Below, one piece after another: positions 5,148 through 64,000 of a DNA stretch of 64,000 nt (within the stretch, counting starts at the first letter, position 1; each line of letters starts with the position of its first letter). The position numbers and the translations under genes are program-made. A model generated the notes under the pieces. It had not been told where the DNA came from. It did no database searches and saw nothing but the letters and a program-made list of their open reading frames with translations. Source of the DNA: Okamejei kenojei (Eukaryota); assembly GCA_035221665.1 (NCBI GenBank), contig CM069142.1:10292001-10356000 (forward strand), written 5' to 3'.

Positions 5148-5339
5148 ATCATCGCTCCATTTCCCATCTCAGATGCCGACTGACTCGCCAAGTTTCTCTT
5201 ACTGTCCATTTTTTTGGCTTTTAATTCAGAAACCTTGAAGCCCTTGTTTGACTATGTGGTGCTCAGAATTCTGCTGCCCCATTCTGATAGCAGGTCATCA
5301 CCACTCTCCACTTATCCCGCTCATGCCCCCCATGCCACA

Positions 5340-15812: not shown

Positions 15813-16735
15813 GTTGTTGAAGAAGAAACTGCAGATGCTGGAGAATCAAGGGTTACACAAAAAACTGGAGAAACTCAGCGGGTGCAGCAGCATCTAAGGA
15901 GCGAAGGAGATAGGCGATGTTTCGGGTCGAGACCCTTCTTCAGACTGGTCAGGGATCAGGGAAACGACAGATATAGACGGTGATGTGGAGAGATAAGGAA
16001 CAATGAATGAAAGGAATGAAGGATATGCAAAAAAGTATCGATGATAAAGGGAACAAGCCATTGTAAGCTGTTTGTGGTGTGAAAATGAGAAGCTAGTGCG
16101 ACTGGGGTGGGGGAGGGAGATAGAGATAGAGGGAATGCCAGGGCCCGAGGACTGAGGGAGAGGTGGGAAAGGGAGGAGACAGCAAGGGTTAACAGAATTG
16201 AGAAAATTCAATGTTCAAGCCCAAAGGATGCAGACTCCCCAAGCGGAATATGAGGTGCTGTTCCTCCAACTTGCGGTGTTGCTCACTCTGGCCGTGGAGG
16301 AGGCCCAGGACCGAGAGGTCGGATGCGGAATGGGAAGGGGAGTTGAAGTGCTGAGCCACCGGGAGGTCGGGTTGGTTTTTTGCGGACCGAGCGGAGGTGT
16401 TCGGCGAAACGATCGCCAAGCCTCCGCTTGGTCTCACCGATATAGATCATCTGGCATCTGGAGCAGCAGATGCAGTAGATGAGGTTGGAGGAGGTGCAGG
16501 TGAACCTCTGTCGGACCTGGAAGGACTGCTTGGGTCCCTGAAAGGAGTGGAGGGGGGAGGTGAAGGGACAAGTGTAGCATTTCTTGCGGTTGCAAGGGAA
16601 AGTGCCCGGGGAAGGGGTAGAGCGGGAGGGAAGGGAAGAATTGACAAGGGAGTTGCGGAGGGAGCGGTCTTTGCGGAAGGCAGACAGGGGGGGAGATGGG
16701 AAGATGTGACGGGTGGAGGGGTCACGTTGGAGGTG
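15813..16735 (-). mobile_element. 5'-truncated Penelope-like element with GIY-YIG remnant
   Basis: NQPDLPVAQHFNSPSHS...RKLEEQHLIFRLGSLHPLGLNIEF; TSD ACCACATTTTCTC at 15800-15812 and 16736-16748. Confidence 0.9.
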
Positions 16736-16953
16736 ACCACATTTTCTCTCTGGGTTACAACATTCACTTCAGTCAAATTCATTTTGTATGTTTTTTAATT
16801 CTGAAGTTTAAAAATAATCTGTGACTGAAAATTTGGCAGGTTGTTATGCTTCTGCCCTAGAAAATGAGTCACAAACAGTTAAGGAATAAGACTACTCCAG
16901 GAGCAAAAATGTTGCTTTATGATCAATAGTGCCAGGGTTCATCTTATAGAATT

Positions 16954-21559: not shown

Positions 21560-21924
21560 ACATTAAGTACCCACAATGATGGATTGCAGTGCACTGTTTT
21601 TATTGCTCCAGTTTGACTATTTTACCCAGCTTTTAATTTTTGGGTTGAAGTTCATTGAGGGCATCATCCTATCGGATGTGGTCAAATGCTGGACCCCATC
21701 AGTTCATCTGTTGAGGTTTTAAGGAAACAAATTAATATAGTGAGAAATTGTTTCCAACATTTCCAATTCAAACAAAAGACCGGAACACCAACTTTGCAGA
21801 TGCTGCAAATATGAAATAAGCATAAAATGCTGGAAATACTTAGAGTCATACTGCATGAAAACAAGCCCCTTGGCACAACTTGCCCATGGCAAGCAGAAGC
21901 TCCATCTAAACTAGCTCAAGTCAG

Positions 21925-25730: not shown

Positions 25731-26289
25731 TTGTGTCTGACCAGTGGAGAGCGTGGAGGAAGCACTGCGCTATGAATTCAGTTGATGTGGTTTGGCGTAT
25801 AGCTTCTGGCATCTTAAGGCACTGTCATCACCACTGCAATTTGTTTTTTAAGTCTGCCAGGTGGCATGGTAAATGGGCACTAAATGTGGAATATGGTCTG
25901 AACTTGTCCACGCGGGCACTTGCTGGCTGCCTCCTTTGTGTGTGGCATCGAGGCTGGCACAGTGTAGGTAGGGAATGACACAGAAAGCAGTGATGCAGAA
26001 CAGTAAGGTTGCTGCTTTATTAACACTGAACAGTTGCCCGGTGGCTATTTGACAGATCTTAGAGAAAGCACCAGCACAGAAACAGATTTTGGAGAACACA
26101 TCAGTTTTTAGAGTGGTGCAAAATGGCTAAGGGACACATTTACTTTGGCAATTGGGAAGAAACTTGACAATGCAGGAAAATAGACCATTCTTCACTATTC
26201 TGTATTAAGTGTTGCGATATTATTTCAGCAGACAATTTAATTTTTAACCTGTGGGGTGTGGACAAAGTCAAGGGTAGTGCAACAGCACT

Positions 26290-27298
26290 GAAAGGTTGCG
26301 TTTTGGACTGTAGGCCTGTGTCTAGTGGTGTGCCTCAGGGCTCGGTGCTGGGCCCATTGCTGTTTCTCATCTATATCAATGATTTGGATGAGAATGTACA
26401 AGGCATGATTAGCATGTTTTCAGATGCCACTAAAGTGGGTGGTATTGTAGATAGTGAAGAGTGGTTGTCAAAAATTGCAGCAAGATCTTAATCGATTGGG
26501 CAGATAGGCTGAGGAATGGTTGATGGAATTTAATACTGAGAAATGTGAGGTGTTGCATTTTGAGGAGTCTAACAGGGGCAATGACATACACAATGAATGG
26601 CGGGGCTCTGGCGGATATTGTACAGAGGGATCTAGGAGTGCAGGTGCGTGGTCCATTAATGTGGCGTCACAGGTAGATAGGGTGGTCAAAAAGGCTTTCA
26701 ACATGTTGGTCTTCATCATTCAGAGTATTGAGTATTGAAGTTGGGAGGTCATGTTACAGTTATGTAAGCCATTAGTGATGCCATATTTATAGTATTATGT
26801 TCAGTTTTGGAAAGATATTGTCAATCTGGAAACATGTTGGATGTTGCCAGGTTTCACGTGACTGAGCTGTAGGAAGAGATTCAGCAAGCTGGGGCTTTAT
26901 CCCATGGAGTGCAAGAAGATGAGGGGTGATGATATAGAGGTGTACCAAACCGTGAGAGTAATAGATCGGGTAAATGTACAGAGTCTTTTGCTCAGATTAG
27001 GAAAATTGATAACCAGAGGACAGAGGTTTAAGGTGAAGGGGAGGAAGATTTAATTGGAACCTGAGGGGTAACTTTTGTACACAAAGGGTGGTGAGTGTTT
27101 AGAACAAGCTACCTGGGGAGGTGGAAAAAGGCAGGGACAATCGCAACATTTAAGAAACATTTAGACGGGTACATGGATAGGACAGGTTCAGAGGGTTATG
27201 GGCCAAATGAAGGCAGGTGGGACTGGTGTAGATGGGGCATGTTGGCCGGTGTGGGCAAGTTGGGCTGAAGTGCCTATTTCCATGCTGTGTGACTGTAT
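26290..27298 (+). mobile_element. CR1/HER1 LINE, RT to 3' end, degenerate
   Basis: [22 protein letters not shown]; MEFNTEKCEVLHF. Confidence 0.92.
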
Positions 27299-28114: not shown

Positions 28115-28894
28115 CTTTGTGCTGTCTGGTGCTGCCACGCATGTGGCAAGGGAACCTAAATACAAAGAGCATCTCAAGCCTGCATTACTGTTCCAGTAAG
28201 ATCATGGCTTATAACCTCAACTTCATTTTCCTGCTTTAGCCCCATAGCCCTGTAATTTGTCATTAGTCCAAAATTTCACTCTGCAGTGAACATACTTGAG
28301 GACTCAGTATCACAATCCTCATCTTAATCTTAAATGGCATATCACTATATCCTGAGTGTACATCCCCTTATTCTCGATAGACCCAAAATGCTGGAGTAAC
28401 TCAGCGGGTCAGGCAGCATCTCTGGAGAGAACGAATGGGTAATGTTTTGGGTCGAGACCCTTGTTCAGACCTCGCCAACCCCCTTATTCCAGTCTCTCTT
28501 ACCAGAGCAGGTATCTTTATAGAGTCTTTAACTGCTGTAAACTGCTGGACCTGGACTACTACAGGGAACCACGTTATACGTTGCAATATTTAATTTACTC
28601 AGGAACTGCTTGGAGTATGGAGATTGGGGAGGGTCAGGAAATGTGAATAAACATATGGCAGGAGCGAGAGATTTTTTTTCGCGCATTTTTAAAGGTGGGA
28701 ATATATAATAGGGCATTTTGGATCCCTAAATGGGAAGGGAAAATAGACAAGGATATGTGTTGCATCTCATTCTATATCTTGTTGGTTGCATGAGATGGTG
28801 CTGTGGAAGAGTGTGGGTGGTAATGGGAGAGTGATCTTGTGCATTCTTTTAGGAATAGTCCTTTCAGAAGGCTGGGCAGTAGATTTGGGGCAAC

Positions 28895-29293: not shown

Positions 29294-29564
29294 AGTCGGA
29301 GGGAACTGCAAATGCTGGTTTAACCCGGAGATGGACACAAAATGCTGGAGCAACTCAGCGGGTCCGGCAGCATCTCTGGCGAGAAGGTAGACAAAAATGC
29401 TGGAGAAACTTAGCGGGTGCGGCAGCATCTATGGAGCGAAGGAAATAGGCAACGTTTCAGGCCGAAACCCTTCTTCAGACTCATACAGATACTCATACTG
29501 GAGAGAAGGGATGGGTGATGTCTGAAGACCCAAAACGTCACCTGTTCCTTCTCTGCCTGTCCCA
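29294..29564. mobile_element. Nested Penelope terminal repeats of two subfamilies
   Basis: TSD CACGTTGCATGTTG on both sides. Confidence 0.8.
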
Positions 29565-35176: not shown

Positions 35177-37310
35177 TTTAGTTTACTTTATTTTTGTCAC
35201 GTGTTTTGTTGCATGCTATCCAGTCAGCGAAAATACAATACAATACATGATTACAGGGGTACACAAAATGCTGGAGAAACTCAGCAGGTGCAGCAGCATC
35301 TGTGGAGCGAAGGAGATGGGCAACGTTTCGGGCCGAAACCCTTCTTCAGACTGATGGGGGGGGGGTGATTCAATACATGATCACAATCAGGCCATCCCAC
35401 AGTGTACAGATACAGGATGAAGGGCACAATGTTTAGTGCAAGATAAAGTCCACTTAAGTATAGTTTGAAGATTCTCCAATGAAATAGATGGAAGTTCAGG
35501 ACCACACTCTAGCTGGTGACAAGAAGGTTCAGTTCCCTGATAATAGCTGTGAAAAAACTGTCCCTGAATCTGGAGGTACACGTTTTTGAACTGGATGGGA
35601 GAGGGGAGAAGGAAGAGTGACTGAGGTGAGACTGGTCCTTGATTCTGCTGGTGGCCTTATATCGAGGCAGCATCAAGTGTAGATGGAGTTTTCGTTTAGT
35701 TTAGAGACACAGCGCGGAAACAGGCGCTTCAGCCCACTGCGTTCGCACCGACCAGCGATCCCCCCACATTAACACTATCCTACACAAACGAGGGAGTTTT
35801 TTTTTACTCGTACACCAAGCCAATTAACCCACAAACCTGTACGTCTTTGGAGTGTGGGAGGAAACGGAAGATCTCGGAGAAAACCCACGTAGGTCACGGG
35901 GAGAACGTACAAACTCCGTGCAAACAGCACCCGCAGTCGGGGTCGAACCCGGGTCTCCGGCGCTGCATTCGCTGTAAGGCAGCAACTCTACCGCTGGGAG
36001 GGAGGTTGGTTTGCATGATGGTCTGGGCTATGCCCACAACTCTGTTAATTTCCACGGTCTTGGATGCCTATGCTGTGATGCTTCCCGACAAAATGTCTTC
36101 TACAGCGTATCTGTAGAAGTTGTTGAGGGTTGTTGCCGATCTTCCTGCGCCTTCTAAGGAAGTAGAGGCATTGGTGTGCTTTCTTGTCCATTGCTTCGAT
36201 GTGGTTGGTCCAGGACAAGTTGTTGGCAGTATTTAGTCCAAAGAACTTGAAGCTTTCGCTCATCTCTACTTCAGTGCCATCAATGTATCACTTTGCTTCC
36301 TGAAGTTGATCGCGATCTCCTTTGTTGACGTTGAGGGGCATCAGGTTTCGAGGTTCTCAATCTCCTTCATGGATTCCATCTTGTCATTATTTGACATATG
36401 GCCCACTACGATGGCATCATCCGTGAATTTGTAAATTGATTTGGATTTGTACTTGTCTGCGCAACCATGAGTGTATAAGGAGTGCGGAGGAAAGCTGAGA
36501 ACACTTCATTGCGGGGCACCAGTGGTGAGGATTATTGTAGAGGATGATTTGTCCCCCATCCTCACTGATTGGGGTCTGTTGGTCAGGAAGTCGAGGATCC
36601 AGTTGTAGAGATGAGTGCTGACCCCAAGTCCCACAGGTTAGGAGATGAGCTTGGATGTGATAATAGTTTTGAAAATAGAGCTTATCAATGAATAGGAGTC
36701 TAGCAGGGAGATGGCATCAGCCATGGACCTGTTGTGGTGATAAACAAACTGTAGTAGGTCAAGGGTGGATTTGATGTGTTCTATAACCAGCCTCTCAAAG
36801 TACTTTACAATGGTAGATGTCAAGGCCACTGGGCAGTAGTCCTAACGGCATGAGATCATTTTCCTTCGGCACCGGTCTTCTTAAAGCAGGCGGATATCTC
36901 AGAATGGAAAGGGGGGAGGAATTAAAGATGTCTGCGAATACTCCCGGTAGCTGGTCCGCGCAGTTCCTAAGGACACGGCCATGAACTCCGTCTGGGACAG
37001 TTGCTTTCCATGGGTTCACACTCGGGAAGGCTGATCTAACTTCTGCAACAGTGTCCCTGGGGAAAGGCACACTTGATTGAGTCTGAAGGGACGGATGTCA
37101 TCACCCTGTTGGCCGTCAGCTCAAAGTGACTATGGGATGCATTCAGTTCCTCAGGACGGGCACACTATAGCCAGCGATGCAGCCTGACTTTGCTTTGCAG
37201 CCAGTTGTAGTGTTCAGGCCATGCCACAGTCTGCCGGTGTCCAAATGATTACACTGGGACTCAGTATTGCCTCTTGGCATCCTGATGGTTTGTGAAGATC
37301 GTGGCGAGTG
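35177..37310 (-). mobile_element. Rex1/Babar LINE, RT to 3' UTR, degenerate, interrupted by Penelope repeat and SINE
   Basis: KATVPDGVHGRVLRNCADQLPGVFADIFN; [14 protein letters not shown]; LSWTNHIEAMDKKAHQCLYFLR. Confidence 0.85.
35690..35996 (-). mobile_element. HE1-type V-SINE
   Basis: Antisense SINE consensus inside the Rex element. Confidence 0.85.
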
Positions 37311-37410
37311 GTGCGGGGGAACAGTTCACTGAAAATTAGCCTGAAATCTCCTTCAGCCGATGGTGTATAATAACTTCAGGTTTTGCTGCAAAACAATTTC
37401 ATTAACTGCA

Positions 37411-37945
37411 GAAAGACACAAAATGCTGGAGTAACTCAGCGGGGCAGGCAGCATCTCTGGATAGAAGGAATGGGTGATGTTTCGGGTCGAGACCCTTCTT
37501 CAGACTTGTTTGATGACACTGTCTCTTTTGGCTCGTGTCAGAAATGATCCTGTTCTTTTGAGGCAATAATGCTGCCAATTTTATCTTGAACTCCATATTT
37601 TCTGGAGGAATGGGTGACATTTCAGGTCAAGACCCTTCTTCAGTTCTGACTAGTTTCACTGCCCTGATTAATTTAACTGGTTGCATGCCTCATTGTCACC
37701 ATCCCCTCAACCAAAAATTAACCATTCTACATTTCCTTATCAGCATCTGCTTTGATCAGTCATTTTCGCACCTTACCCTTCCATATCTCTGTGTCTCCAT
37801 CTCCCCTGACTCTCAGACTGAAGAAGGGTCTCGACCCGAAACGTCACCCATTCCTTCTCCAGTGATGCTGCATGCTCCGCTAAGTTCCTCCAGCATTTTG
37901 TGTCCTTCTGCAGTTTAAACCAACATCTGCAGTTCCTTCCGACAT
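37411..37945. mobile_element. Penelope-derived unit: two minus-strand hammerhead motifs around a unique spacer, followed by an inverted terminal repeat
   Basis: Cores at 37476-37503 and 37616-37643 (-) and 37818-37845 (+); spacer homologous to 48768-48877. Confidence 0.8.
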
Positions 37946-38348
37946 AATTAACTGCAGCTCCAAAGTCAAGTGGTCTTTAAAGCTAGTTTTAGAGGCTACT
38001 AACAGCATTATGATTTGTGGCATTCCACAAGCACAAAATTGCACAACCATGCAATAAGAATGAAAATTAGAAGCTGGGAGGTTGGGCTTCTCAAGCTGGA
38101 GAGGTTTTACTGGTAATATTATTGTATCCTGCCAGAAAAATAATATTTGTGCTGGATTCTTCAAAGAAAGAAAGTGGTACCCATTTGCTTATTTTAAGAG
38201 GAGAACGTTGAATCATTTGGGCTAATTAGGATGATGGTATGAATGTAAAAGTAGGTCAGGGTCGTTGTTGCATTCCCTCAAGTTTCCAAAACATTCCCTT
38301 GTGATTATTTCGACCACTTTTACAAACCATGAGCTCTCAATGGTAGCC

Positions 38349-38351
<3 letters not shown>

Positions 38352-38382
<31 letters not shown>
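38352..38382. repeat. (TA)n microsatellite
   Basis: Directly visible TA run. Confidence 0.95.
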
Positions 38383-38386
<4 letters not shown>

Positions 38387-38699
38387 CTCTTAACACAATT
38401 TCTCTTCTTGTTAGCTTTGCCTAAAAATCTGTGAACTCCACAGGTATGCATGCACACCCTTGACTTAAGTGTTTGGAATAACCACTTCCCAGAAGCACAT
38501 GTGTAGGAAGGAACTGCAGATGTTGGTTTAAACCGAATATAGATACAAAATGCTGGAGTAACTCAGTGGGACAGGCAGCATCTCTGGAGAAAAGGAATGG
38601 ATAACGTTTTGGGTCTGAAGAAGGGTCTCGAAATTAGAAATTTTGTACGTTGGTCAGCGAAGCTGTTCCCTTAAATCTAGTCATGAAACAGTTCACCGG

Positions 38700-39023
38700 C
38701 AGGCGACACGGAGGTACAGTGGTAGAGTTGCCGCCTTACAGCGCGTTCTGTGCCAGAGACCCGGGTTCGTTCATGATCATGGGTGCTGTCTGTACGGAGT
38801 TTGTACGTTCTCCCCATGGCCCGCGTGGGTTTTCACTGGGTGCTCCGGTTTCCTCCCACACGCCAAAGACATACAAGTTTGTAGGTTAATTGGCTTTCAA
38901 TAAATATAAATTGTCCCTAGTGTGTGTAGGATAGTGTTAATGATAGTGCGGGGGTCGTTGGTCGGTACCGACTCGGTGGGCCGAAGGACCTGTTTCCCCG
39001 CTCTGTCTTTAAACTAAACTAAA
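38700..39023 (+). mobile_element. HE1-type V-SINE
   Basis: tRNA-like head, central domain, (TAAAC)n tail. Confidence 0.9.
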
Positions 39024-39881
39024 TGAATTGTGTAAAGACTTTGCCTAACCCTAGGCGGACAAGGTAAACTCTTCAGCTGAAAGGAGGGTGCTTCAGAAAG
39101 TCGGTCCTATTTCAAAAGAGCGCTGCATCCCGGCACAATGATCATTTAGTGGTCACAAAAGCAGACGGCTTGCAGGAATGAGTGTTTGCAGGCAGGAATT
39201 CATAAGGATCAAGCAGCCATGGGCAGACTGAATGATTTAATAATGTTTTTCCTTTAAAACAGAAATCATGTGGTAAACACCCACTCCACCACAAAGAAAG
39301 GGTTGCCATTTCTATGTGAGCTGAAGAGGTTGAGTCAGATGACTTTCGTATTTAAGAAATGTGAATCTATTTAAAGGTTCAGATTGCATCAGCCTTTCTT
39401 TGAAATCCCACGGACCAAATAGAATTTGAAACTGAATAAAATAATCTCCTCGTCCTTCTCGATAGCTGGAGGTCCCTGCACAAATGTGTTCATTGCAGCT
39501 TTAACTCACACAAAATTCAACGTTGAAGGGAGAGAATGATCCATTTTTCAGTGCAGTTTCATCTCGCTGTATATTTTACAGCAGATCTGGTTTCAATTTA
39601 CATTTATGTTTTTTTTTTTTTTTGCTTTTCATCTTTTAATGAATTCCAGCATTGGCTCGGATTCTAGGTCCCATTTCCCTTGTCGGGTTTAAAGGGACCC
39701 ATGACTCTTGAGATTTGGACAGGACTCGTGTGAATTCGATGCACCTCCAGGCTTGCCAGTAAAATTTAATGGGGCATTCGGAGCTAGTGTTGAATGTTAG
39801 TGCCTTCTCTCGAGGAGTGCCCAGAGCTATAATCAATTTGTGGGACAGCAAGGTTGCCTCTTGTCCAATCCTTCTCGGAAG

Positions 39882-40192
39882 TTAGTTTAGTTGAGTGTAG
39901 AGATTCAGAGCGGAAACAGGGCCTTCGGCCTACCGAGTCCGCTCCGACCTGCGATCCCATGCACATTAACACTATAACATACCAGGGACAATTTACGCTT
40001 ATACCAAGTATACAATCCCAAGCCGATTAACCTACAAAGAGTGTGGGAGGAAACCGAAGATCTCGGAGAAAACCCACGCAGGTCACGGGGAGAACGTACA
40101 AACTCCGTACAGAAAACACCCTTAGTCAGAATCGAGCTGGAGTCACTGGCGTTGTAAGGCAGCATCTCTACCGCTGCGCCACCGTGCTGACC
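39882..40192 (-). mobile_element. HE1-type V-SINE
   Basis: Antisense SINE consensus. Confidence 0.88.
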
Positions 40193-40354
40193 CTCAGTTG
40201 GGGCTTTTCCATATTATGGGCTCAATAGAGATTTTCCACATCATTTGAGTGCAGATCTGAAAGTTGATCCAAACTGAATGCAATATAAACCATTGGCATT
40301 TGGAATTCAAGAACAGGATTGATATATTTTGGAATATTATATAATGGACTCGTT

Positions 40355-40945
40355 CCATTTGCCTGCATTTGGCCCATAGCCCTCTAAACTCTTACTGTCC
40401 AAATATCTGTCCAAATGCCTTTTAAGACCCATAATTATACTCATTTCCATAGCTTCCCCTGGCAGCATATTTCAAATACAGACTACCCTCTGAGTGAAAA
40501 AGTTGTCCCTGAGTTCCCTATTAAATATGTCTCCTCTGGCATTAAGCTATGCCCTCTAGTTTTAGAATCCATTAGCTGGGATAAAAGACTGTTAGTATTC
40601 AGGAAGGAACTTGCAGTTGCTGGTTTACACTGAAGATAGACACAAAATGCTGGAATTACTCAGCGGGACAGGCAGCATCTCTGGAGAGAGAGGAATGGGT
40701 GAAGTTTTGGCTCGAGACCCTTCTTCAGAACACTGTCATTGTTCACTTCATCCATGCCCCTCATGAATGTACACATCTAAATAAGGTCACACCTCAGCTC
40801 ACTATGCTCCAAGCCTATCCAACCTCTCCCTATAACTCAAGCCTCCAAGCCCAGAAAACATCCTGGTGAATCACTTCTGCACTCTTTCCAACTTAAAGAC
40901 ATCCTTCCTACAGCTGCGCACAGTACTCCAAGTGTGGTCTTACCC
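40355..40945 (-). mobile_element. Old CR1/HER1 fragment with Penelope insert
   Basis: GCCTGCATTTGGCCCATAGCCCTCTAAAC...TACTCCAAGTGTGGTCT. Confidence 0.7.
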
Positions 40946-42324
40946 ACGGCTTGTAACAGGTTTTGTGCTCAATAAGCCGGAAGGAACTGCAGAAGTTGGT
41001 TTAAACCGAAGATAAACGCAAAAAGCTGGAGTAACTCACTGGGTCAAACGGGTAATGGGTCCATAGGGAAATTCATCTCTACAGTAATTGAGTGAAGGAT
41101 TGATGTACTTGCAGCCCTCCAGCCCATGTACATGTTGTGTCCTTGCTCTTCACAATGCTACTTCTAACTGGTGTTCCAGATGCTGGCTCATTGCCTGACT
41201 GAGGATTGTAGTGATTATCAACAAGGGATTTCCTTGACCACCTTTGCCCTCACGCGATGAGACTTCATGGAGTTTGGATTTGATGTTCAAAGCTCCGAGA
41301 GTATTTCTACACACTTTAACCCACACCATGCTACACCTAACGCCTGCTACAGTGCCACCATGATTCTACGTCAGCTCAGATGGCAGGATGGTAATCTGGG
41401 TCATGGATGCTCGCTGAAAGATGATTCTGTAAGATAGACACAAAAAGCTGGAGTAACTCAGTGGGTCAGACAGCGTCTCTGGAGAGAATGAATAGGTGAC
41501 GTTTCGGGTCGAGACTCTTCTTGAGACTCTGTAAGTATGGTTCTACAGTATTGTTGCTTGATCAGTCTGTTGGCCAACTCTCTCAACATGGCATGGGCCT
41601 CCAAACGTTAGTGCAGAAGCATTTGCAAGTTTAACTATTTGTGCTAATGATTTGTTTGAATCCAATGCCTCAGTTAATGCCAAGTAAACGCTCTGTTTTG
41701 GGATTACACTTTCTCATGCTAGTTTGTCACAACTGAGCAGTTATCAAGCCATTTCAAAGGGCAATTAAGATCATGGGAAATGGGCCCTTGGTAACATGGG
41801 AAGCAAAGCCCAGTGACCCAGATACCAAACCATCAGGATTTCCGAATAATAAGGTTATCGGTGATTTATAGTGTTTACAGTTCGAGCCTTGAAAACGAGT
41901 GCTTGTTATATCTGTGTCCGTAAACTATGCTGAGAAAGAACGGGTGACGTTTCGGGTCGTGACCGTCTTAAGAAGGGTCTCGTCCAAAAACCTCAGCCAT
42001 CACTTCTCTCCAGAGATGCTGCCTGTTCCGCAGAGTTACTCCAGCAGTTTGTGTCTATCTTCTGAGTCTTTGATTTCTGCATATCGCATTGAGGTAGAAT
42101 TTCGCATCAACTTTTTAAATTCCCTTCAATATGTTTTATAATTTAATCAACCCTGGAAAATGTTGTTGATATTGATAGGTAATTTATTTAGTCATTCTGA
42201 GTGTCTCAAAATATTTCTGCATTCTACATACAGACACCTTTGTGGCTGTTATTTTTTTTTAAACCATCAGCTCTGCAGAAGAACAGCAAATGTTATGTAG
42301 TCGAGTTTTGTGCTTCTTTTAGTG

Positions 42325-42836
42325 CAGCAGGGTGGCGCAGGGGTAGAGCTGTTGCCTTACAGCGCTTTCTGTGCCAGAGACCCGGGTTCGATCCTGCCAA
42401 TGGATGCCGTCTGTACGGAGTTTGTACGTTCTCTACATGACCGCGTGGGGTTTTCTCCGAGACCGTCAGTTTCCTCCCAAACTCCAAAGACATACTGTAC
42501 AGGTTTGTAGGTTAATTGGCTTGGTATAAATGTAAGTTGTCCATAGTGTGTGTAGGATAGTGTTAATTACCGATCATTCTTTATTATTCTGGATTTTAAT
42601 TAATGTATTGTTTTTTTTAATGTATAATTTATGATGCTTTTATAAGTGATATACTAAGATTTTATATGTATTTTATGATGTTTTTAAATGCAATGTTTTT
42701 TATGTAATGTTGTCCCTTGTTTGGACCTTGAGTCCGAAATGAAGTTTATTGTTATTATTAGTACTAATGTGAGGAGATTGCTGGTCGGAATGGACTCGGT
42801 GGGTCGAAGGGCCTGTTTTTGCGCTGCAGCTCTAAA
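42325..42836 (+). mobile_element. HE1-type SINE interrupted by an AT-rich LINE 3' UTR (~42570-42760)
   Basis: SINE breaks at AGTGTTAAT and resumes at AGTACTAAT; insert ends in a (TTA)n-like tail. Confidence 0.8.
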
Positions 42837-43294
42837 GTGAAGGGTCTCGACTAAACTTTATAAACTTTATATTTTTCTTGCAAGAACACTGGTTTACCCA
42901 GTAGATTTGTTCTGAGAGGAGCTTTGAAGGAAGACAGTGGTGTAGCACTGTTGAAAGATATGTTGGACGGTGGTAGTGCTCTTACAGAAATGAGATGCAA
43001 AATTCAATGGTGTAGTGTCGGGGGCAAGTAGGCTGTTGCGTGGGTTCAATTATGTCAAATGCTGTGCAGTTCTCATATTAATATCACGTGTGGAAAATTG
43101 ATTTTTCTATAAAGAACCCGTGATAACCCCACAACTGAAACTAGTCTTTCCTGTGAGCCAAATGTGCTACAGCCTTATTCAAAGGTCCCAATTTATGTGC
43201 ACCACTGCTTCCAAGTCCAAGGCACCCCTCTTCTTCCAGGAAGGTTCTTTGGGTGTCGAGAAGCTGGGATTGTTCCCATCCCAAAAATTGCCAG

Positions 43295-43775
43295 CGAAAT
43301 TGCAGCAAATTGTGGACGCGGCCCAGACCATCACACAAACCCACCTCCCTTCCATTGACTCCATTTATACCTCACGCTGCCTCGGCAAGGCCAGCAGCAT
43401 AATCAAGGATGAGTCACACCCTGGCCACTCCCTCTTCTCCCCTCTCCCATCGGGCAAAAGGTACAGAAGTGTGAAAACGCACACCTCCAGATTCAGGGAC
43501 AGTTTTTTCCCAGCTGTTATCAGGCAACTGAATCATCCTACCACAACCAGAGCGCAGTGCTCAACTACTATCTACCTCATTGGTGACCCTCAGACTATCC
43601 TTGATCGGACTTTGCTGGCTTTACCTTGCACTAAACGTTATTCCCTTATCATGTATCTATACACTGTAAATAGCTCGATTGTAATCATGTATTGTCTTTC
43701 CGCTGACTGGATAGCACGCTACACAAAGCTTTTCACTGGACCTCAGTACATGTGACAATAAACTAAACTAAACTT
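43295..43775 (+). mobile_element. Rex1/Babar 3' end
   Basis: ASSIIKDESHPGHSLFSPLPSGKRYRSVKTHTSRFRDSFFPAVIRQLN; ends GTGACAATAAACTAAAC. Confidence 0.88.
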
Positions 43776-43787
43776 AACTTCATAGGT

Positions 43788-43987
43788 GTAGGAAGGAACT
43801 GCAGACGCTGGTTTAAACCAAAGATAGACACAAAAAGCTGGCGTAACTCAGCGGGACAGGCAGCATCTCTGGTGAGAAGTAATGGGTGATGTTTTGGGCC
43901 TGAAGAAGGGTCTCGACCCGAAACGTCACCCATTCCTTCTTTCCAGAGATGCTGCCTGTCCCGCTGAGTTACTCCAGCATTTTGTGT
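43788..43987. mobile_element. Palindromic Penelope repeat with hammerhead motif at 43900-43927
   Basis: TSD TTAACTTCA(T/C)AGGT; CTGAAGAAGGGTCTCGACCCGAAACGTC. Confidence 0.85.
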
Positions 43988-44949
43988 TTAACTTCACAGG
44001 TCCTTGTCTACACAGCCACTTTCCCGATCATCGCCTGAGCCTAAAATGCACTGCCTCCCAATGTGTCTTCTTGATACATTGTTCCCACCCTCTTCATGTC
44101 TCTCCTCTACCTTTCACAATCCTCTGCCCATGTCCCAGTTTCCGTTCCACAAATTGTTGACCGATACACCATAATCCAATCCAATTCTCAGCAAAAATGG
44201 AAGATAATGGAGAAACCATCATTCCAAGATATCTCCATCTCAACGAGTAACCACATCAGGTTGTGGAGGACAAGTCAATGGATCTTTTTAAGTCAGAGAT
44301 AGATAGATAGATTCTTGTAGGTGTCAGAGGTTATGGGGAGAAGGCAGGAGAATTGGATTAGGTGGGGGAGATCGATCAGCTATAATTGAAGACTTGATGG
44401 GCCAAATGGCCTAATTTTGCTCCTATCTCTTATGATCCTTATGACAACGTGTTTCATTTGTTTTAACAAATATTTCATATTTACATATAAATCAATTTAG
44501 CAATGCCTATTTTTGGATCTTATTGTTCAATTTGGAGGTTTTATAAATGTATCAATTATCCAATGAAGCAACAACTTTAAATAATTAGATTTTATTAGTG
44601 GAAACTTGAGTTTACATACATTAGTGTGGGTGTTAAATTGCACTGGATACATTATTTAAAATGTCACCGATATTTATGCATTAGCATCTTAAAGTTACAA
44701 AATAGATCAAAAGGTTACTTTGTTATCAGCACAAAAATGCATTTCAGTTTTTTGGTTTTTTTTGGTAAATATAAATGTACACAATCTTCGCCTGTTCCAA
44801 ATGAACACATGTACAGCTAGGTTATTGACTGCATTCTGTTGGTTTACTGGTGAACAAAGACCTTAACCAAATATACAAGATAGCTCTTGTGTAGGAAGGA
44901 ACTGCAGACACTGGTTTGAACTGAAGATAGACACAAAAAGCTGGAGTAA

Positions 44950-45163
44950 TGGGCCTGTCCCACTTCCACAAACTAATTCACGACCTCTGCCGAGTTTGCC
45001 CTTGACTCATACTTGCAGCATGGTCGTCACAGGTTGTTGGAGGTCGTAGGTAGGTCGTGATGCCAGTCATAGGTGCTCGTGGCATCGGGGTGCTTTTCTA
45101 GCCTGATGAAAAACGTCCACGAGTTAAAAAGGTTGTGAATTAGGTCGTGAAAGTGGGACAGGC
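44950..45163. mobile_element. PIF/Harbinger-type MITE inside a Penelope repeat (host ~44887-45255)
   Basis: TAA|TGGGCCTGTCCCAC ... GTGGGACAGGC; host flanked by AAGATAGCTC. Confidence 0.75.
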
Positions 45164-46144
45164 AGCATCTCTGGAGAACAGGAATAGGTGATGTTTCGGG
45201 TCGAGACCCTTCTTCAGACTGAGTTACTCCAGCTTTTTGGGTCTATCTTCTATGTAAGATAGCTCGTAAAGTTCCCATATTTTATTTGTATGCCTTTGCA
45301 TCCTGGATGGCAAAAGTAAAATGTTAAAGGATTTATTATTTTATCAGCATGGGCAGTGTTAACAAATGCATAGAAATGAACAGTAATTTGGAATAAATCC
45401 TAATGAGCCTGCCAGTCATTTTTTTGTTGTTTTATCCGCTCATTTTCTTTCACGGGGGTGGAAATCGCCTGAATGTTGTTCAAGTGAAGAGCATTCCTGC
45501 GGCATACATTCTCATCTCTCTCCAATGACGAAGATGCATTGGTTCCTGTAAATAGGATTCTTAGTTAACACATAAATAAACCTTTCAGATTTCAAATTAG
45601 CGGTGATTAAATCCGGGCTTTAATCCTGCCTTCTAGTCCATACCTTCCTTCCTTCCCCCATCCCCCAAAAGGTTTAGCCTTGCACGATTAATAGTGGCAT
45701 CTGGAACTGATTATCCTGCCTGTCATATTCGAAAGCCGGTTTGTTCGACCCGGACAAGCAAGCCCTGTAAAGAAAAGCTTAGCAATGGATTGTCCCGCAT
45801 ACAGCACACACCAAAATGGCTGATTTTTATTCCTGCCTTTGTAATGGTGAATACAATCAGAAATATTTGCTTATTGAAACAGTTTTCCAAGTAATTCCCC
45901 TATTTCTTCCTTGCAGCCATTTCCCTAAATGCACAGAATTTTATTCACCATCTTCTGTCATACACATGAGAACAATTTGTAATTTTTCCTGTCAAGCATA
46001 ATTCACGATAATGAAAGCATTTATAGCACTTTAAACCTTTGCCTCCATGCCCACTAGCGGCAAGGCGTAAGAGCTCCACTCCAAACAGCACAAGAAAGAG
46101 AGAAAGACAGTAGATTAATTAAAACACAAATATCTTTGCGTTTA

Positions 46145-46410
46145 CAGGTCCAGGTTCAGGAATAACTACTTCCCCACAGCCATCAGGCTATTAAACTCAA
46201 CTCAAAGAAAACTGAACATTAATAGCCCATTTCTGTTTATTTGCACTTCATCTGTTTATTTATTCATGTGTGTACATATATGGTCTATGGTATATGGACG
46301 CACTGATCAGTTCTGTATTTATGCCTACAATATTCTGTTGTGCTGAAGCAAAGGAAGAATTTCATTGTCCTATCTGGGACACATGACAACAAACTCTTGA
46401 ATCTTGAGTT
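46145..46410 (+). mobile_element. Rex1/Babar 3' end
   Basis: CAGGTTCAGGAATAACTACTTCCCCACAGCCATCAGGCTATTAAAC; ends ATGACAACAAACTCTTGAATCTTGA. Confidence 0.75.
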
Positions 46411-46974
46411 GTATTCTCACTATCAGTTCTATTGGTCCTTAGCTGAAAATAATTCTCAATCACGAGATTCCTTTGTTAATTACTTTGTTTAATGTCAATT
46501 TAAATACCGAGAATCATATGTTTCAGTGCCACATTTTCTCGTTTGATGTTGCTGCTATGAAGTGGCTTAGGATATTTTTATTGCATTGATGTTAATTTGC
46601 AGATGGAGATCCTTGGTTGTGGTGGAGTTTCTACCACAGAACTTCTCCAGGACCTCACCATGCAAGGAAGAGGCGGTGGTCTCTGCGCATAGCAGCTTGG
46701 ACTGTTGTGGTCATAAGGTCATAAGCGATAGGAGCATGAATTAGGCCATTCGGCCTATCAAGTCTACTCCCCCATTCAATCAAGGCTGATCTATCTCTCC
46801 CTCCTAACCCCATTCTCCTGCCTTCTCCCCATAACCCCTGACACCCGTGCAATGAATAGAAGGCCTCCTGCTCTGCCCCTCACACCCATGGCACTGAGAT
46901 CTACCTCCACTGTTTCGCAATCCTCAGGAGAACCGTGGAAATCATTTGTTTGTCAAAAACCTGCAACCACAATT

Positions 46975-47560
46975 GTGTCTGTGCTAGGCCTCCTCCACTG
47001 TCAGAGTGAGGCCAAACACAAATTGGAGGAACAGCCCCTCATATTTTGCATGGGTGGCTTACAACACAGCAGTATGAATATTTATTTTTCTAACTTCATG
47101 TAACTCTTGCATCCCCCTCCCTCTCTCTCCATCCCTTCTGCAATAGTTGTTGTACTCATTTCACTGCCGTCCTGTTGAGTCTCATTGATGTTTATGTTAA
47201 ATTCTATCATGTAATGTGTGTTCTATTTTTCAGCTGTATCGCTGCTGGCAAATTCAATTCACTGCACCTTAGTTGGTGCATGTGACGAATAAATGTGACT
47301 TTGACTTTTGACTTTGTCTCTAACTCGTTTTCACCTAGCCCACAGCTGACAATGGCCTGTTTCCTTTAACATTGTTACTTTTTTGCATATCTTTCATTCA
47401 TCTGTTCTATATCTCTCTATAGCACCGTCTATACCTTTTGTTTCCGTTTTTCCCTGACTCTCAGTCTGAAGAAGGGTCTCGACCCAAAACGTCACCTATT
47501 CCTTCTCTCCAGAGATGTTGCCTGACCTGCTGAGTTACTCCAGCGTTTTGTGTCTATCAT
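46975..47560 (+). mobile_element. Penelope 3' end with an internal LINE-tail insert
   Basis: SVLGLLHCQSEAKHKLEEQPLIF..MNIYFSNF, then terminal repeat. Confidence 0.85.
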
Positions 47561-47654
47561 CACAACAATTGATACCTTGCTCTCAAATGTGAGCAGAGCG
47601 CTGTATGAAACATGTGCTCACTAGGCAAACATCCTGCAGAACTCACATTAGGTA

Positions 47655-47832
47655 TTGGGCGTGCAGGTTAGTAGGTTCATAGGCTTGGTATGAATGCAAA
47701 TTGTCTCTAGTGGGTGTAGGATAGTGTAAGTGTGCAGAGATTGCTGGTCAGTACGGACTCGGTGGGCCGAAGGGCCTGTTTCCGCGCTGTATCTCTAAAA
47801 CTGAATGAAACAAAACTATACTAAACTAAACT
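47655..47832 (+). mobile_element. 5'-truncated HE1-type SINE
   Basis: 3' half of the SINE with (TAAAC)n. Confidence 0.8.
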
Positions 47833-48257
47833 CCTGCATTATCCCAATCCCCTGATTCGCTCAATGTCTAAAAATCTGTCTCCCGTCTTGAAAATACTCA
47901 GCAACTGATTAGGGAATTCTCTCTGGGTAAAGAAATATTTTCCCATCTCAGGCCGGATTGTTCAGTCCCTTAGTTAGAGACTATAAGCTTTGGTTCCAGA
48001 CAGCCCACCCATGGGGAAACAGTGAGCTCCTCTACCATGCCACCATTTATCACATGGGGCAGTGTCCGAAACGTTGAGAGTGAGAATATCGAGCATAATG
48101 ATGAATCCAGCTGCTGTAAACGAGCAAAATAATGTTCAATATGGGATTTAACTGTTTTAAACCTTTCGACGTATGAGCAGTTTCTAACCTTAGCTCATTC
48201 TCTGCTGCAATTCCCTCTTTGGAAAAAAGACTGGATAATGTGGGCTATGAATTTTCT

Positions 48258-48354
48258 AGGGTCTGAAGAAGGGTCTCGACCCGAAACGTCGCCTATCTCC
48301 TTCGCTCCTTAGATGCTGCTGCACCCGCTGAGTTTCTCCAGCTTTTTGTGTACC
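48258..48354 (+). mobile_element. Short Penelope terminal-repeat insertion starting at the hammerhead motif (48263-48290)
   Basis: TSD CTATGAATTTTCT at 48245-48257 and 48355-48367. Confidence 0.85.
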
Positions 48355-48670
48355 CTATGAATTTTCTTGGTTGGTTTGTGTCAGTATTTGATCTGTTTTT
48401 ACATCCCGGCTAAGGTAATTGTCATTATGGTAATGGTAATTGCACTATCAATAATTATGGGTTGCCATTGGCACAGGTTTCTGCAGAAGCAATTTATGGT
48501 CTATTACCACAAGGTTTTCTGGCCAGCTTCCATATTCATTTGGGTTTATAGTTTTACTTTAATCCTCTTTTTTTAATTCAGTGATGCTTACATTGACCAT
48601 GTCTCAGTGTGTAATGCAGTCGTTGAAATGATGGAGCACAGCTCTGGACATAGTTCGGCCATGTTTTTTC

Positions 48671-48910
48671 TGAAGAAAGACACAAAATGCTGGAGTAACT
48701 CAGCAGGACAGGCAGCATCCCTGGAGAAAAAGAGTAGGTGACGATTCGGGTCAAGACCCTTCTTCAGACTAGTTTGATGAGTGTCTCTTTGGGCCAGTGT
48801 CAGAAACAATCCTGTTCTTTTGAGGCAATAGTTCTGGCAATTTTACCTCAAACTCCATATTTTCTGGAGGAATGGATGACATTTCAGGTCGAGACCCTTC
48901 TTCAGACTCT
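48671..48910 (-). mobile_element. Hammerhead-spacer-hammerhead unit (retrozyme-like)
   Basis: Cores at 48740-48767 and 48878-48905; TSD ATGTTTTTTC at 48661-48670 and 48911-48920. Confidence 0.8.
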
Positions 48911-48974
48911 ATGTTTTTTCCGCATTAAAGTAGTGTTTCGGTCACCCTAACCCTAGTTGTGAAAGTCAACTAAG

Positions 48975-49435
48975 TTTTATGAATAAGTTTAATTTATGAA
49001 TACGTTTATTGGCCAATTATGTACACATACAAGGAATTTGCCTTGGTGCTCTGCTCGCAAGTAACAACACGACATACAGTAAACCATTAAGAATAAAACA
49101 TTAACACATTAAGAATAAAATATTATAGCTTAAACATGTGAATGAAATAAAATACCAGAGCAAAAGGAAGCTACAGACGTTTGGCTGTTGAGTAGAGCTA
49201 CTGCTCTTGGAAAAAGCTGTTTTTATGTCTGGCTGTGACGGCTTTGACAGTCTGGAGTTGCCTTCCAGAGGGAAGTGCTTCAAAGAGTTTGTTGCCAGGG
49301 TGAGAGGGGTCAGAGATGATCTTACCCGCTCGCTTCCTGGCCCTTGCAATGTACAGCCTGTCAATGGGGGGGGGGGGGGGGAAGGTTGCAGCCAGCAACA
49401 TTCTCAGCTGATCGGACGATTCGCTGCAGCCTCCG
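48975..49435 (-). mobile_element. Rex1/Babar 3' end, second subfamily
   Basis: RARKRAGKIISDPSHPGNKLFEALPSGRQLQTVKAVTARHKNSFF. Confidence 0.85.
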
Positions 49436-49671
49436 GAAAACTTGAGTTGCGAGGTACGTGAAAGAACATTGGCGAATAGCCCCGTGTAACGCTGTGCAGA
49501 AACTAACCATGTTTTTTACCGCAGCTCAGACATGGAGAACAATGCTCAACACTCTTCCAGTTACTGCAGAGTGTTGATACCTAGTGCAGCAAGCAAATAA
49601 ATGAGTGGGAGAGTGCTGCTTAGGGGGCGGATGTAGTTGAAGAAATACTTAATTACAATCTCATTTTGATT

Positions 49672-50604: not shown

Positions 50605-51260
50605 AGGATTTGAGGACCAGAGCTATCGTGAGTGGTTGGGCAAACAGGGACTCTATTCCTAAAAGTGCAGGGGGCTGAGGGGGTGATCTTATAGAGGTTT
50701 ATACGACCAAAGGGTGAAATAGGGTAAATACAGAGCCTTTTACCCAGAATTTTGGAATCAACAACCGGAGGACATAGTTTTTAGATGAGAGGGGAAAGAT
50801 TTAATAGTAACCTGAGGCGTAACATTTTCACACAAAGAGTTGTGAGTGTACAGAAAGAGCTTCCAGAGGGGGAAGCTGAGGCTGGTACGATAACAGCAAT
50901 CAAACAGCATTTGGACTGGCACATGGATAGGAAAGGTTTAGAGCGAGGAGGAGAAGGAGTACAAGGGTATCAACTCAAAACGTCATCCATTCCTTAATCT
51001 GAAGAGGGGTCTCGACCAGAAACGTCACCCATTCCTTAGTCTGAAGAAGGGTCTCGACTCGAAACATCACCCATTCCTTCTCTCCAGAGATGCTGCACTG
51101 TCCCACTGAGTTACTACAGCATTTTGTGTCTACCTAAGGTTTTGAGGGATGTGGGCCAAATGTGGGCAAGTGGGATTAGTGTGGATGGAGCATCTCAGTC
51201 AGCATGGGCAAAATGAGCCTAAGGACCTGTTTCCGTGCTGTAAGACTGTGACTCTATGTA
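50605..51260 (+). mobile_element. CR1/HER1 3' fragment with a tandem-hammerhead Penelope insert (~50940-51135)
   Basis: RGERFNSNLRRNIFTQRVVSV; insert flanked by AAGGTTT. Confidence 0.85.
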
Positions 51261-51829
51261 ATGCCACCCAGTAAGCATCAACCATTTGATGTTTGATCTT
51301 TAATATTGCAAAGTACATTTTGAAGCACTAAAGAAGGTTTACAAGATGACTCACAAGGATGTTAACAGGACTGAGAAGATAAACATCAGGAAAGGTTGAA
51401 CAAGCAGGGTCTCTGCTCAACGAAAGAGAAGCCTGGCTGGTGGCCAGCTGAGGGCATAAAAACAAATATTTAAAGAAGAATGTGTAGAAAAGACATGCAG
51501 ATGCTGGTTTACATCGAAGAACGACACAACATGCTGGAGTAACTCAGCGGGACAGGCAGCATCTCTGGAGAGAAGGAATGGGTGACGTTTCAGGTGGAGA
51601 CCCTTCTTCAGACTATTTAAAGAAAAGAGACTAAAAAATGTTAAGAGAGTATTAGTGGAAGATTTCAACTTCCCTTATGTTGCTGGATCACCCATAAGTT
51701 ATAGGAGCATAATTAGGCCATTCGGCCCATCAAGTCTGCTCTGTCATTCAATCATGGCTGATCTATCTCTCCCTCCGAACCTCATTTATCTGCCTTTTCC
51801 CCATATCCCCTGACACCCGTACTAATCAT

Positions 51830-57171: not shown

Positions 57172-57500
57172 CAGTTCAGTTCAGTTGAATTTAGTTTATT
57201 ATGTACTGAGGTGGAGTGAAAAGCTTTTGTTGCGGGCTATCCAGTCAGCGGAATGACAATACATGATTGCAATCGAGCCATTTACAGTGTACAGATACAT
57301 GATAAGGGAATAACGTTTAGTGCAAGGTAAAGCCAGCAAAGTCCGATCAATGATAGTCCGAGGGTCACCAATGAGGTAGATAGTAGTTCAGCACCTCTCT
57401 CTAGTTGTGGTTGGATGATTCAGTTGCCTGATAACAGCCGGGAAGAAACTGTCCCTGAATCTGGAGGTGTGCGTTTTCACAATTCTACACCCTTTGCCTG
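57172..57500 (-). mobile_element. Rex1/Babar 3' end
   Basis: Antisense of the 43440-43775 sequence. Confidence 0.85.
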
Positions 57501-58611
57501 GGATGACTGGAGATTAGACTGACCCAGTCCGAAGCAGAGTCTCTCCCTGAAACGTCACCCATTCCTTCTCTCCAGAGATGCTGCCTGTCCTGCTGAGTTA
57601 CTCCAGCATTGTGTGTCTATCTTCGGTGTAAACCAGCTTCTGCAGTTCCTTCCTACACAAGACTGGAGATTAACCTCAGTTCATGGAAACTGTGACTTAA
57701 TCCTGGAAGATGTAGATCTGCGCGACTCGCCATTGAGCAGGTAGGAAGTGGAGTGTAGTAGAGTTGTGAATGCCGCCTCTGATTTAATGTCTGACAGCTG
57801 CGGACTGGAGCCGTTGATAACCATGCACTTAATGGCTTCGAGCTCTGCAGCCTGTTCCAGAGTGGAAACGCCTCATTAGTCATGGTATCAACTTACTTCA
57901 ATCTCACTTATTATCACTCCTTTTATCTCTGTCCCTTGTTCAATAAGTCTTGTGACATTCCTGAGATGACCAATTTATTGCTAATTAATGTCAAGTGAAA
58001 ATTAAGTGGAGGTATGTGACCTTCTTTCACCCACAACCTTTGTAGCAGACGGACGACAAGCTGCCATGTCCTCTTACTCTGAATACCACCTCATTCGGTT
58101 CTTCTATTATTGCACTTCATTATTCCTCTACACTCATATCTTGCACTACAACTTTGCATCGTTCTGCTACTTTGCCCTCGTCATTGTACCTAATGTCGGA
58201 TGTACCGTTGTTGGATTTAAGCTGTTTACTCTGTGAGCTTCATGTGAACGGGGAATTTCATTACATCCTGACGTATATGACAATAAACTCATCTCAATTG
58301 GAATCTAAGTTGGAGCCGCAAAGTTCTGATAAAGAGACCTAGACTTGCCACGTTAACTGTTTTGTTGTGCTGATTCTATCTGGCCTTCAGAGCTCTTCCA
58401 GCATTCCCTGTTGTTGACAGTAACACAGGTTATCTAATGACCATTCCACATTCCAGCAGTCAGGCCAAGGATGGCCTGCCCCATTGGCTCGACAATGGGT
58501 TTGGGACGCTGTTGTGTGGTGCAAGGTGCCATATAAACGTAAGCCTTTCTTTCCATAATATCACAACTCAGATTTGCTGCAATTTGCATCCAGAGTCATT
58601 GGAAATAGTTA

Positions 58612-59989: not shown

Positions 59990-60597
59990 GTAGCAATGTT
60001 ACAAAATTTTGAGATTTTAAAGATCAAGTCTGCAATTTACCCCATCAGATAAAGCATAAAAAGAAGTTTAATTTGACACCTAATTCACTTTCACATCTTC
60101 AGTATTAAAAAAGTTATGGCCATTTTCATACTCGGAAATTAGCATCTTGTTCCCCATTGCTTTTCCATTGACTTAACACAAAAGCTGTGATCGAGGACAG
60201 TCAAAAGCCCATAACTTTCTTAAAAATTAAGAGAACTGAAATAAATTTTCAATTATTGTAGATTATAGCATTCTGAAACAAATATGAAACAATCTTACTT
60301 GGATGACCTGAAATTAAAGCATATTATTAGTTAGTTACCCAATTGTAGCTAATTACAAAATTCAATGACTAGATCTAAACATCTATCCATTTCATAAGAA
60401 AAGATTAACATTTCTAAATAGCCTAAGTGTCCAAATAACATTCACACAAGAATTCACGATATAACATGATTTTTAAATCTCATTGTCATGAATTTATAGG
60501 TCAAATGGAAGGAATTTAGTGTTTAATTCCCGTAAATTAATGGCCATTTTAATCATCTTGCGAGTGGGTTTTTGTGGAACGCGATCGATTGGAACAT
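59990..60597. mobile_element. Truncated second copy of the TIR element at 13709-14750
   Basis: Near-identical from GTAGCAATGTTACAAAATTTTGAG to GATTGGAAC. Confidence 0.85.
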
Positions 60598-63559: not shown

Positions 63560-63926
63560 AGTGGCACGGTGAACAGTGTTAGAGTTGCTGCCTTGCAACG
63601 TCAGAGACCCAGGTGCCATCCTGACTATGAGTGCTGTCTCTACAAAGTTTGTAAGTTCTCCCCGTGACCTGCGGGGGTTTTCTCCGAGACCTCTGGTTTC
63701 CTCCCACACTCCAAAGACGTACAGATTCGTAAGTTAATTGTTTAAGAAGGAACTGCAGATGCTGGAAAAATGGAAAATAGACAAAAAAGGTTACTTGGTT
63801 TGGTATAAATGTAAATTGTCCCTAGTGTGTGTAGGATAGTGTTAATGTACAGGGATCGCTGGTTGGTGCGGACCCGGTGGGCTGAAGGGCCTGTTTCCGT
63901 GCTGTATCTCTAAACTAAACTAAACT
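63560..63926 (+). mobile_element. HE1-type V-SINE with a short Penelope insert (~63740-63790)
   Basis: tRNA-like head, central domain, (TAAAC)n tail. Confidence 0.88.
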
Positions 63927-64000
63927 ACCAGAGCAATCAGAGCAGGTCTGTTGTACTTCAGTTATAAATCTTTCCTTATAATGAAAGTGAGAGTCTACTA

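Follow-up and report, generated by a model that had tools for sequence, protein, structure and literature searches.

A pair of minimal hammerhead cores around a unique spacer in Okamejei kenojei is very probably a relic of Penelope-like element ends

Penelope-like elements (PLEs) carry minimal hammerhead ribozymes which, in the accessible part of their description (PMC4209133), have no loop III, a palindrome at positions 15-16, an extra base between positions 9 and 10.1 and a very short helix I, and which occur mostly as single dispersed motifs or as opposite-strand pairs 30-200 nt apart, with a GIY-YIG open reading frame (ORF) upstream. These features recur in the family of cores analysed in the present work, which was studied in a window (the whole stretch of DNA analysed) of 64,000 nt from Okamejei kenojei. 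The locus of interest, referred to as copy 2, differs from that description in that its two cores have the same sense and flank a unique 92-nt filler and not an ORF, and in that helix I has 2 bp, as it does throughout the family. A second related arrangement consists of non-coding host DNA captured between solo pLTRs with target-site duplications (TSDs), together with inverted pLTR arms, as reported in the accessible part of Arkhipova et al. 2013 (PMC3846280). Copy 2 resembles these captures in its direct pLTR pieces around unrelated non-coding DNA, in a TSD in the range of 8-10 bp, in the optional inverted pLTR and in its microhomology junctions, but it is very small, it recurs 11 kb away as an inverted arm, and the source of its filler was not found in window, metagenome or phage searches. 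Animal non-LTR retrozymes, as far as the accessible parts of Cervera and de la Pena 2020 (PMC7229834) and Li et al. 2026 describe them, have in common with copy 2 a pair of type I cores in the same sense at short distance, a GC content of 42-43% and a pLTR origin; copy 2, in contrast, is not arranged head to tail, its cores are minimal and damaged, its self-pairing is weak, its period falls below the monomer range of 150-450 bp, and it is present in 1-2 copies per genome. Finally, non-allelic gene conversion between SINEs (PMC8230782, in the part accessible) likewise concerns neighbouring members of an abundant family, at distances of about 10 kb and with mosaic subfamily bases, but in the present case it would have to transfer a 138-bp insertion, and not only substitutions.

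The analysis leads to the conclusion that copy 2 is very probably a relic of PLE ends and does not represent a retrozyme family. With a 30-nt core probe, its minus-strand cores map to 48738-48767 and 48876-48905, a period of 138 nt; this agrees with the preliminary description of the locus, whose core starts of 48740 and 48878 fall 2 nt inside the probe. The minus strand is the ribozyme sense, in which the order of parts is TSD, 5-nt leader, core A, 13 nt, 92-nt spacer, AGT, core B, tail and TSD. In window coordinates the features are as follows.

48661..48670, no strand: left copy of the 10-bp target-site duplication (repeat search and flank comparison)
48671..48737, minus: ordinary pLTR tail, the 3' end in ribozyme sense; its final 1-2 bases can also be read as target (microhomology)
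48738..48767, minus: core B, the downstream minimal hammerhead core, with A15.1 -> U
48768..48770, minus: family leader AGT, 3 nt, preceding core B (family alignment)
48771..48862, no strand: 92-nt unique spacer; compared with copy 1, 79 matches, 13 mismatches and 2 gap columns
48863..48875, minus: 13 nt of family sequence following the core, from which 5 nt are deleted, as in copy 1
48876..48905, minus: core A, the upstream minimal hammerhead core, with C11.1 and C15.2 -> U in both copies
48906..48910, minus: 5-nt leader ending in GT, the usual 5' stop point of the family; copy 1 has no leader
48911..48920, no strand: right copy of the 10-bp target-site duplication (repeat search and flank comparison)

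The 10-bp TSD reported in the preliminary description withstands statistical scrutiny: ATGTTTTTTC forms a direct repeat flush with copy 2 (48661-48670 and 48911-48920) and has just two matches in the whole window, compared with 0.37 expected, and flanking repeats of at least 10 bp were found at 0.4% of 2000 randomly placed intervals. Copy 2 has the ends and the duplication of a retro-insertion, as had been noted earlier.

The cores of copy 2 belong to a family which is abundant in the window, with 32 matches at up to 3 mismatches (none is expected) and 43 at up to 7. The family forms 48 clusters which occupy 10.6 of the 64 kb, or about a sixth of the window. Flanking repeats of 7-16 bp, a few of them of low complexity, are present at 23 of the 48 clusters, compared with 9.7% of random intervals, and because so many clusters have such duplications, the TSD of copy 2 is an ordinary footprint of the family. 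Both orientations are found within 11 of the 48 clusters. When TSD-flanked copies with a single orientation were chosen for a 5' end at the core (n=8), all started at most 12 nt from it; seven of the eight have a leader of 2-12 nt, and all seven leaders end in GT. The ends of copy 2, with a leader ending in GT, a TSD and an ordinary tail, are typical of the family.

Several further features of the family were observed in the course of this work. TSD-flanked solo ends which start 2-12 nt before the core are located at 181-285, 28374-28479, 41434-41527, 48258-48354, 51478-51613 and 57517-57660. The hot spot for 5' stops coincides with the 5' edge of the ribozyme and not with the predicted cleavage site, which is about 30 nt further downstream, and contig ends in the sequencing runs also pile up near the stop point (joints 48770 and 48907-48908). 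Head-to-head inverted pLTR pairs with duplications of 9-16 bp lie at 12958-13181, 21324-21564, 29295-29553 and 43786-43995, among others; the pair at 43823-43993 gave weak, spurious matches to microRNA hairpins.

The assignment of the family to the PLEs depends on one protein-coding fragment in the window.

16286..16768, minus: GIY-YIG endonuclease fragment (E 2.3e-05, passing the Pfam cut-off), with a core about 340 nt downstream of it

The core downstream of this fragment, at 15914-15943 on the minus strand, belongs to a sister subfamily and is not copy 2. Many of the 30 longer relatives of the fragment are labelled as sharks, rays and skates (whale shark, manta, stingray, skate), and two unlabelled relatives combine a reverse transcriptase (RT) with GIY-YIG. 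On the strength of these relatives the window is assigned to a cartilaginous fish. Because GIY-YIG lies upstream of a core and has relatives which combine it with RT, the repeat is the end of a PLE, for which our guess as to clade would be Neptune. The marks of a PLE derivative are found in the family in the form of a pLTR and minimal hammerhead downstream of a GIY-YIG ORF (through the 15914 core), TSDs of variable length (7-16 bp), and 5'-truncated, partial-tandem and inverted arrangements (the 11 clusters mentioned above and the junction in copy 1). A Cys-rich stretch precedes the GIY-YIG motif in the window fragment, and a Zn-finger-like linker between RT and endonuclease is named in the accessible part of PMC8557442. 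The TSD and both ends of copy 2 are the work of a PLE. Rfam has no match in the window at the gathering score and, at E values of up to 10, eight weak matches in 37000-49500, none of which is a hammerhead; this silence is as expected, because the cores are minimal. The family core was not found in metagenome contigs.

The preliminary description had assigned the same architecture to another locus in the window, copy 1, at 37411-37643. The cores, the spacer and the tail are indeed common to both loci, but copy 1 is part of a larger insertion, of which it forms one arm: it runs on past 37643 into a plus-strand copy of the same pLTR family, and the whole insertion (37412-37946, 535 bp) is bracketed by an 11-bp repeat which is found nowhere else in the window.

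37401..37411, no strand: left copy of the 11-bp duplication that brackets the entire copy-1 insertion (flank comparison)
37412..37643, minus: inverted arm, consisting of tail, core B (37474-37503), spacer and core A (37614-37643)
37633..37946, plus: direct arm, consisting of about 180 nt of the element's 3' region, a core (37818-37847) and a long tail
37947..37957, no strand: right copy of the 11-bp duplication (flank comparison)

Where core A starts, the two arms overlap in an imperfect microhomology of about 11 nt, and it is because of this overlap that copy 1 is without the family leader. In the direct arm the sequence is that of an ordinary element. The insertion is arranged head to head, with copy 1 as its inverted arm, and copy 1 is not the same unit as copy 2. 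The helix-III segments of its inverted arm (37474-37503 and 37614-37643) are fully complementary after opposite CpG decays, which is probably due to chance.

When the two copies are aligned, as the preliminary description had recommended, they are identical at 207 of 236 columns, with the identity distributed over core A (28/30), spacer (79/92), core B (27/30) and tail (58/67). The local alignment scores of the flanks resemble those of shuffled sequence (26 on the left, which 5.5% of 200 shuffles reach, and 19 on the right, which 68.5% reach), so that the flanks are unrelated, as had been claimed, and the extended flank homology that had been named as evidence to the contrary was not seen. The further claims that the copies have a single origin and that no segmental duplication is involved also stand; homology stops at the element boundaries on both sides. 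A variant in the second core, said to be shared, is present in both copies; it consists of two CpG decays and occurs in 3 of 43 cores, and it was rejected as a diagnostic mark of the pair because a third, spacer-less copy at 34526 carries both decays. The real marks common to the pair are the spacer, its two junctions and the 5-nt deletion after the upstream core. The B ends of copies 1 and 2 agree at 0.88, compared with 0.89 for the best of the other family members and a mean of 0.86 among 26; because the copies differ as much as random family members, the event that relates them is old. One derived base is shared by the B ends, and it is found in four other copies too. Both tails end within a few bases of each other and have one variant in common, and the linked subfamily bases at columns 31 and 39 are present in copy 2 and in seven other copies in the window, but not in copy 1. 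The two spacer copies have the same orientation and lie at a distance of 11 kb. A candidate arrangement in which core B alone forms a TSD-flanked insertion beside host DNA was rejected, there being no matching repeat at either locus.

Contigs of three DNA runs, each from a different organism (four of the 24 listed runs were used), were aligned to 48380-49160 at 80% likeness. More than 120,000 contigs aligned per run, a number which includes those of a second high-copy repeat (48974-49160) that begins 54 nt past the right TSD and has a single copy in the window. Summed depth, which is not equivalent to copy number (contig records are also filtered, and 10-14% of two runs fall outside the reading), was 10.4/6.8 over the spacer in run X1 (flank 10), 15.3/13.4 in X6 (flank 10.5) and 99.8/81.5 in X11 (flank 48), the last being made up of two contigs of 38.5 and 43; the pLTR bins were deeper than the spacer by 4-6 orders of magnitude in the three DNA runs. 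Because the spacer remains at the level of the flank and the pLTR is deep, there is no dispersed spacer family; a few spacer copies may have been missed, but a large family cannot have been. An orthologue of copy 1 was expected in X1 but was not evident, and the contig approach does miss some copies. The copy-2 site is filled on both sides in X1 and X11 and on the left side in X6, and no joint that skips the insertion, as at an empty site, is among the 15 listed of 608 joints. At 48807 and 48833 one of the X11 contigs, but not the other, reads as copy 1 does; this fits an orthologue of copy 1, but six other copy-1 letters are absent among the alignment rows listed, and the fit is not relied on here. 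Among the same rows, both X11 contigs have a common base at 48824 which is in neither window copy. The best scores of the spacer elsewhere in the window, 31 and 29, are in the range of 28-37 obtained from 15 shuffles each, a 22-mer from it has 0 exact matches in metagenome contigs, and a phage search gave no match.

The best reading of these data, which we hold tentatively at close to an even chance, is that copy 2 is a dead chimeric PLE insertion whose transcript was copied locally, as a whole unit and with RNA as the template, into one arm of copy 1. Copy 2, a pLTR fragment followed by 92 nt of unique filler and a pLTR end, would have been built by PLE machinery: the GIY-YIG endonuclease would make a staggered cut that results in the 10-bp duplication, the reverse transcriptase would start on uncleaved RNA at the tail and read on through core B, and a template change would then pick up the filler and core A, with synthesis ending where family copies usually stop, before the core. 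In a later event, read-through transcription of copy 2 from the minus strand, towards copy 1, would have supplied the RNA template for one arm of copy 1, 11 kb away, while the other arm would have come from ordinary element RNA, and the two cDNAs would have been joined by microhomology. The mechanism is comparable to the twin priming of L1. Ribozyme cleavage and circular RNA would have no part in the formation of either copy. The earlier proposal that the whole unit moved as one retrotransposed piece is thereby retained as the leading reading, with which the TSD and the ends are in agreement, but it is unproven, because gene conversion gives the same picture.

The RNA-templated route is favoured by the even divergence along the unit and by the tail end and single variant which the copies have in common, while the fact that the B ends are no closer to each other than to family members, with one common derived base that four other copies also have, counts against it. 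The direction from copy 2 to copy 1 is favoured by the leader, which is present in copy 2 and absent in copy 1, and by the target end of copy 1, which matches the tail end of copy 2 at 5 of 6 bases. The bases at columns 31 and 39, which copy 2 has and copy 1 does not, suggest an independent tail. In vitro, according to PMC11167929, a PLE protein both cuts the two strands of the target and extends them, and it uses RNA that has not been cleaved. A search of titles and the beginnings of abstracts, which most subscription papers lie outside, found no report of local copying by PLEs, and the accessible part of PMC9977147 contains nothing on local PLE insertion. Searches with 73 of 79 long ORFs and 150 of 178 shorter non-repeat ORFs returned only the GIY-YIG fragment, a weak RT and one ALKBH8_N match, and no transcript was found to span the region; run X17, which is labelled as RNA but is probably DNA, has no cover over the spacer and is uninformative either way. 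With neither a host gene nor a transcript across the region, the read-through RNA is an assumption. The general proposition that PLE machinery can copy nearby read-through (nascent) RNA kilobases away on the same chromosome, with head-to-head arms derived from two RNAs, is doubtful at present.

Gene conversion or templated repair, although unlikely when taken by itself, is a close rival that is rated just behind the RNA route. It supposes that the spacer arose once, as the filler of copy 1, and that a solo end with its own 10-bp duplication at the copy-2 site was repaired from copy 1, core B offering homology to one end of the break and core A to the other, in which case the TSD dates the solo end and not the whole unit. 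Solo ends with TSDs and the same start point are common, and one (48258-48354) is only 400 nt away; the leader and the two linked tail bases of copy 2, absent in copy 1, are also as this explanation predicts. A distance of 11 kb separates the two copies, which point the same way, and Alu conversion is reported to operate over about 10 kb and to fall with distance (PMC8230782, in its accessible part, citing earlier work), but that figure covers substitutions and not insertions, and here a 138-bp insertion would have to be acquired by way of two homologies of about 45 nt. The base at 48824 common to the X11 contigs is what a later exchange between the loci would give, but the identities of these contigs are unsettled. 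The divergence of the tail (58/67) is no higher than that of the spacer (79/92), and the variant and end point common to both tails likewise speak against repair.

It is improbable, though less so than the explanations that follow, that the copies belong to a small non-autonomous PLE subfamily in which a distant master locus gave rise to a few copies by 5' transduction, two of which are neighbours by chance. Core A does look older than core B, with two CpG decays and a deletion in both copies, as if the template had aged, and additional members might be concealed by the contig filter, which drops records, or in the 10-14% of two runs outside the reading. However, at most two spacer contigs were counted in any run, and both X11 contigs enter the core-A side. 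Two independent insertions within 11 kb would be expected at about 1e-5 per pair if the genome is taken to be 2-3 Gb in size, an argument from proximity which carries selection, in that the window was flagged because it contains the pair.

A true non-LTR retrozyme, in which the 138 nt between the cleavage sites would be excised by a double hammerhead, circularised and reinserted via rolling-circle reverse transcription, is very improbable. The same-sense type I cores 138-140 nt apart would suit such a process, minimal cores need a partner, the helix-III segments of copy 1 are fully complementary, and animal retrozymes are reported to be derived from pLTRs (bioRxiv 10.64898/2026.07.22.740005, in the part accessible). 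The complementarity, however, is the outcome of CpG decay of a palindrome, and the cores themselves are damaged. The GAAT in place of GAAA that had been noted in one core is confirmed in core B of copy 2, the downstream core, where it corresponds to A15.1 -> U and is predicted very likely to have killed the ribozyme; in core A of both copies a G-U has replaced the pair G10.1-C11.1. On sequence and folding, two consecutive units with complete and catalytically intact type I cores are not present. The predicted pairing of the active helices is 0-0.09 with a helix I of 2 bp, and the would-be circles have MFE z values of -1.14 (copy 2) and -0.44 (copy 1) relative to 200 shuffles each, with 40-48% pairing; because they fold like shuffles, they are not highly self-paired monomers.

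The arrangement of the unit is equally unlike that of a retrozyme. The spacer occurs once per unit, and core B is followed by the family tail, with no second spacer and no permuted ends; because the spacer does not return past core B, the unit is not a tandem monomer. Head-to-tail repeats with a hammerhead in each unit are lacking, and among 16 rows TRF reports no array at copy 1 or copy 2. Nor is there a multi-copy family, apart from the few copies that the filter and the partial reading may have missed. The preliminary classification of copy 2 as a retrozyme-like unit therefore falls, for want of a repeated monomer and of a TRF array, and because the spacer has single-copy depth and copy 1 is an arm; by the criteria in the accessible parts of PMC7229834 and bioRxiv 10.64898/2026.07.22.740005, copy 2 is no retrozyme. 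Spacer-less tandem repeats of the core are present upstream of a full tail at 6271-6458 (period 46, 3.0 copies, inside a 12-bp duplication) and at 50963-51135 (period 42, 2.8 copies), with TRF rows at 6321-6459 and 50963-51079. These are nearer to the definition of a tandem retrozyme than copy 2 is, yet too short, and they are probably products of slippage.

Segmental or tandem duplication of a block, to which the closeness and same orientation of the copies might point, has a negligible probability, and in its plain segmental form is refuted by the flank comparison, because homology ends at the element boundaries, the flanks are shuffle-like and each copy has a separate duplication.

The window contains other repeats as well. 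A second abundant short repeat (families D9 and D10, for example at 5054-5148 and 63833-63927) ends in (TAAAC)n and is presumably a shark or ray SINE or LINE tail. Younger dispersed repeats are found at 13709-14008 and 59990-60289 (300 nt, 94%, direct) and at 43453-43726 and 57225-57498 (274 nt, 92%, inverted). The weak RT fragment (RVT_1, below the cut-off) lies at 26168-26488 on the plus strand, and the ALKBH8_N match, at 36048-36287 on the minus strand, is in our estimation probably a LINE-derived piece and not a host exon.

Copy 2 is one more fossil of an abundant family, in an arrangement already described for Penelope elements, and it calls for caution, in that, in genomes of this kind, the presence of two hammerheads and a TSD is not enough to identify a retrozyme. 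Why PLEs retain introns, and by what route their tandem and inverted structures form, are questions that PMC8557442 leaves open. If the local route is true, the unique spacer would act as a natural barcode of a retrotransposition event close to its source, and across shark and ray genomes the pairs that share such a barcode would be expected to show strong clustering. Fillers of this unique kind, enclosed by pLTR pieces, could then give, across an entire assembly, the distance between donor and copy and the template origin of each arm.
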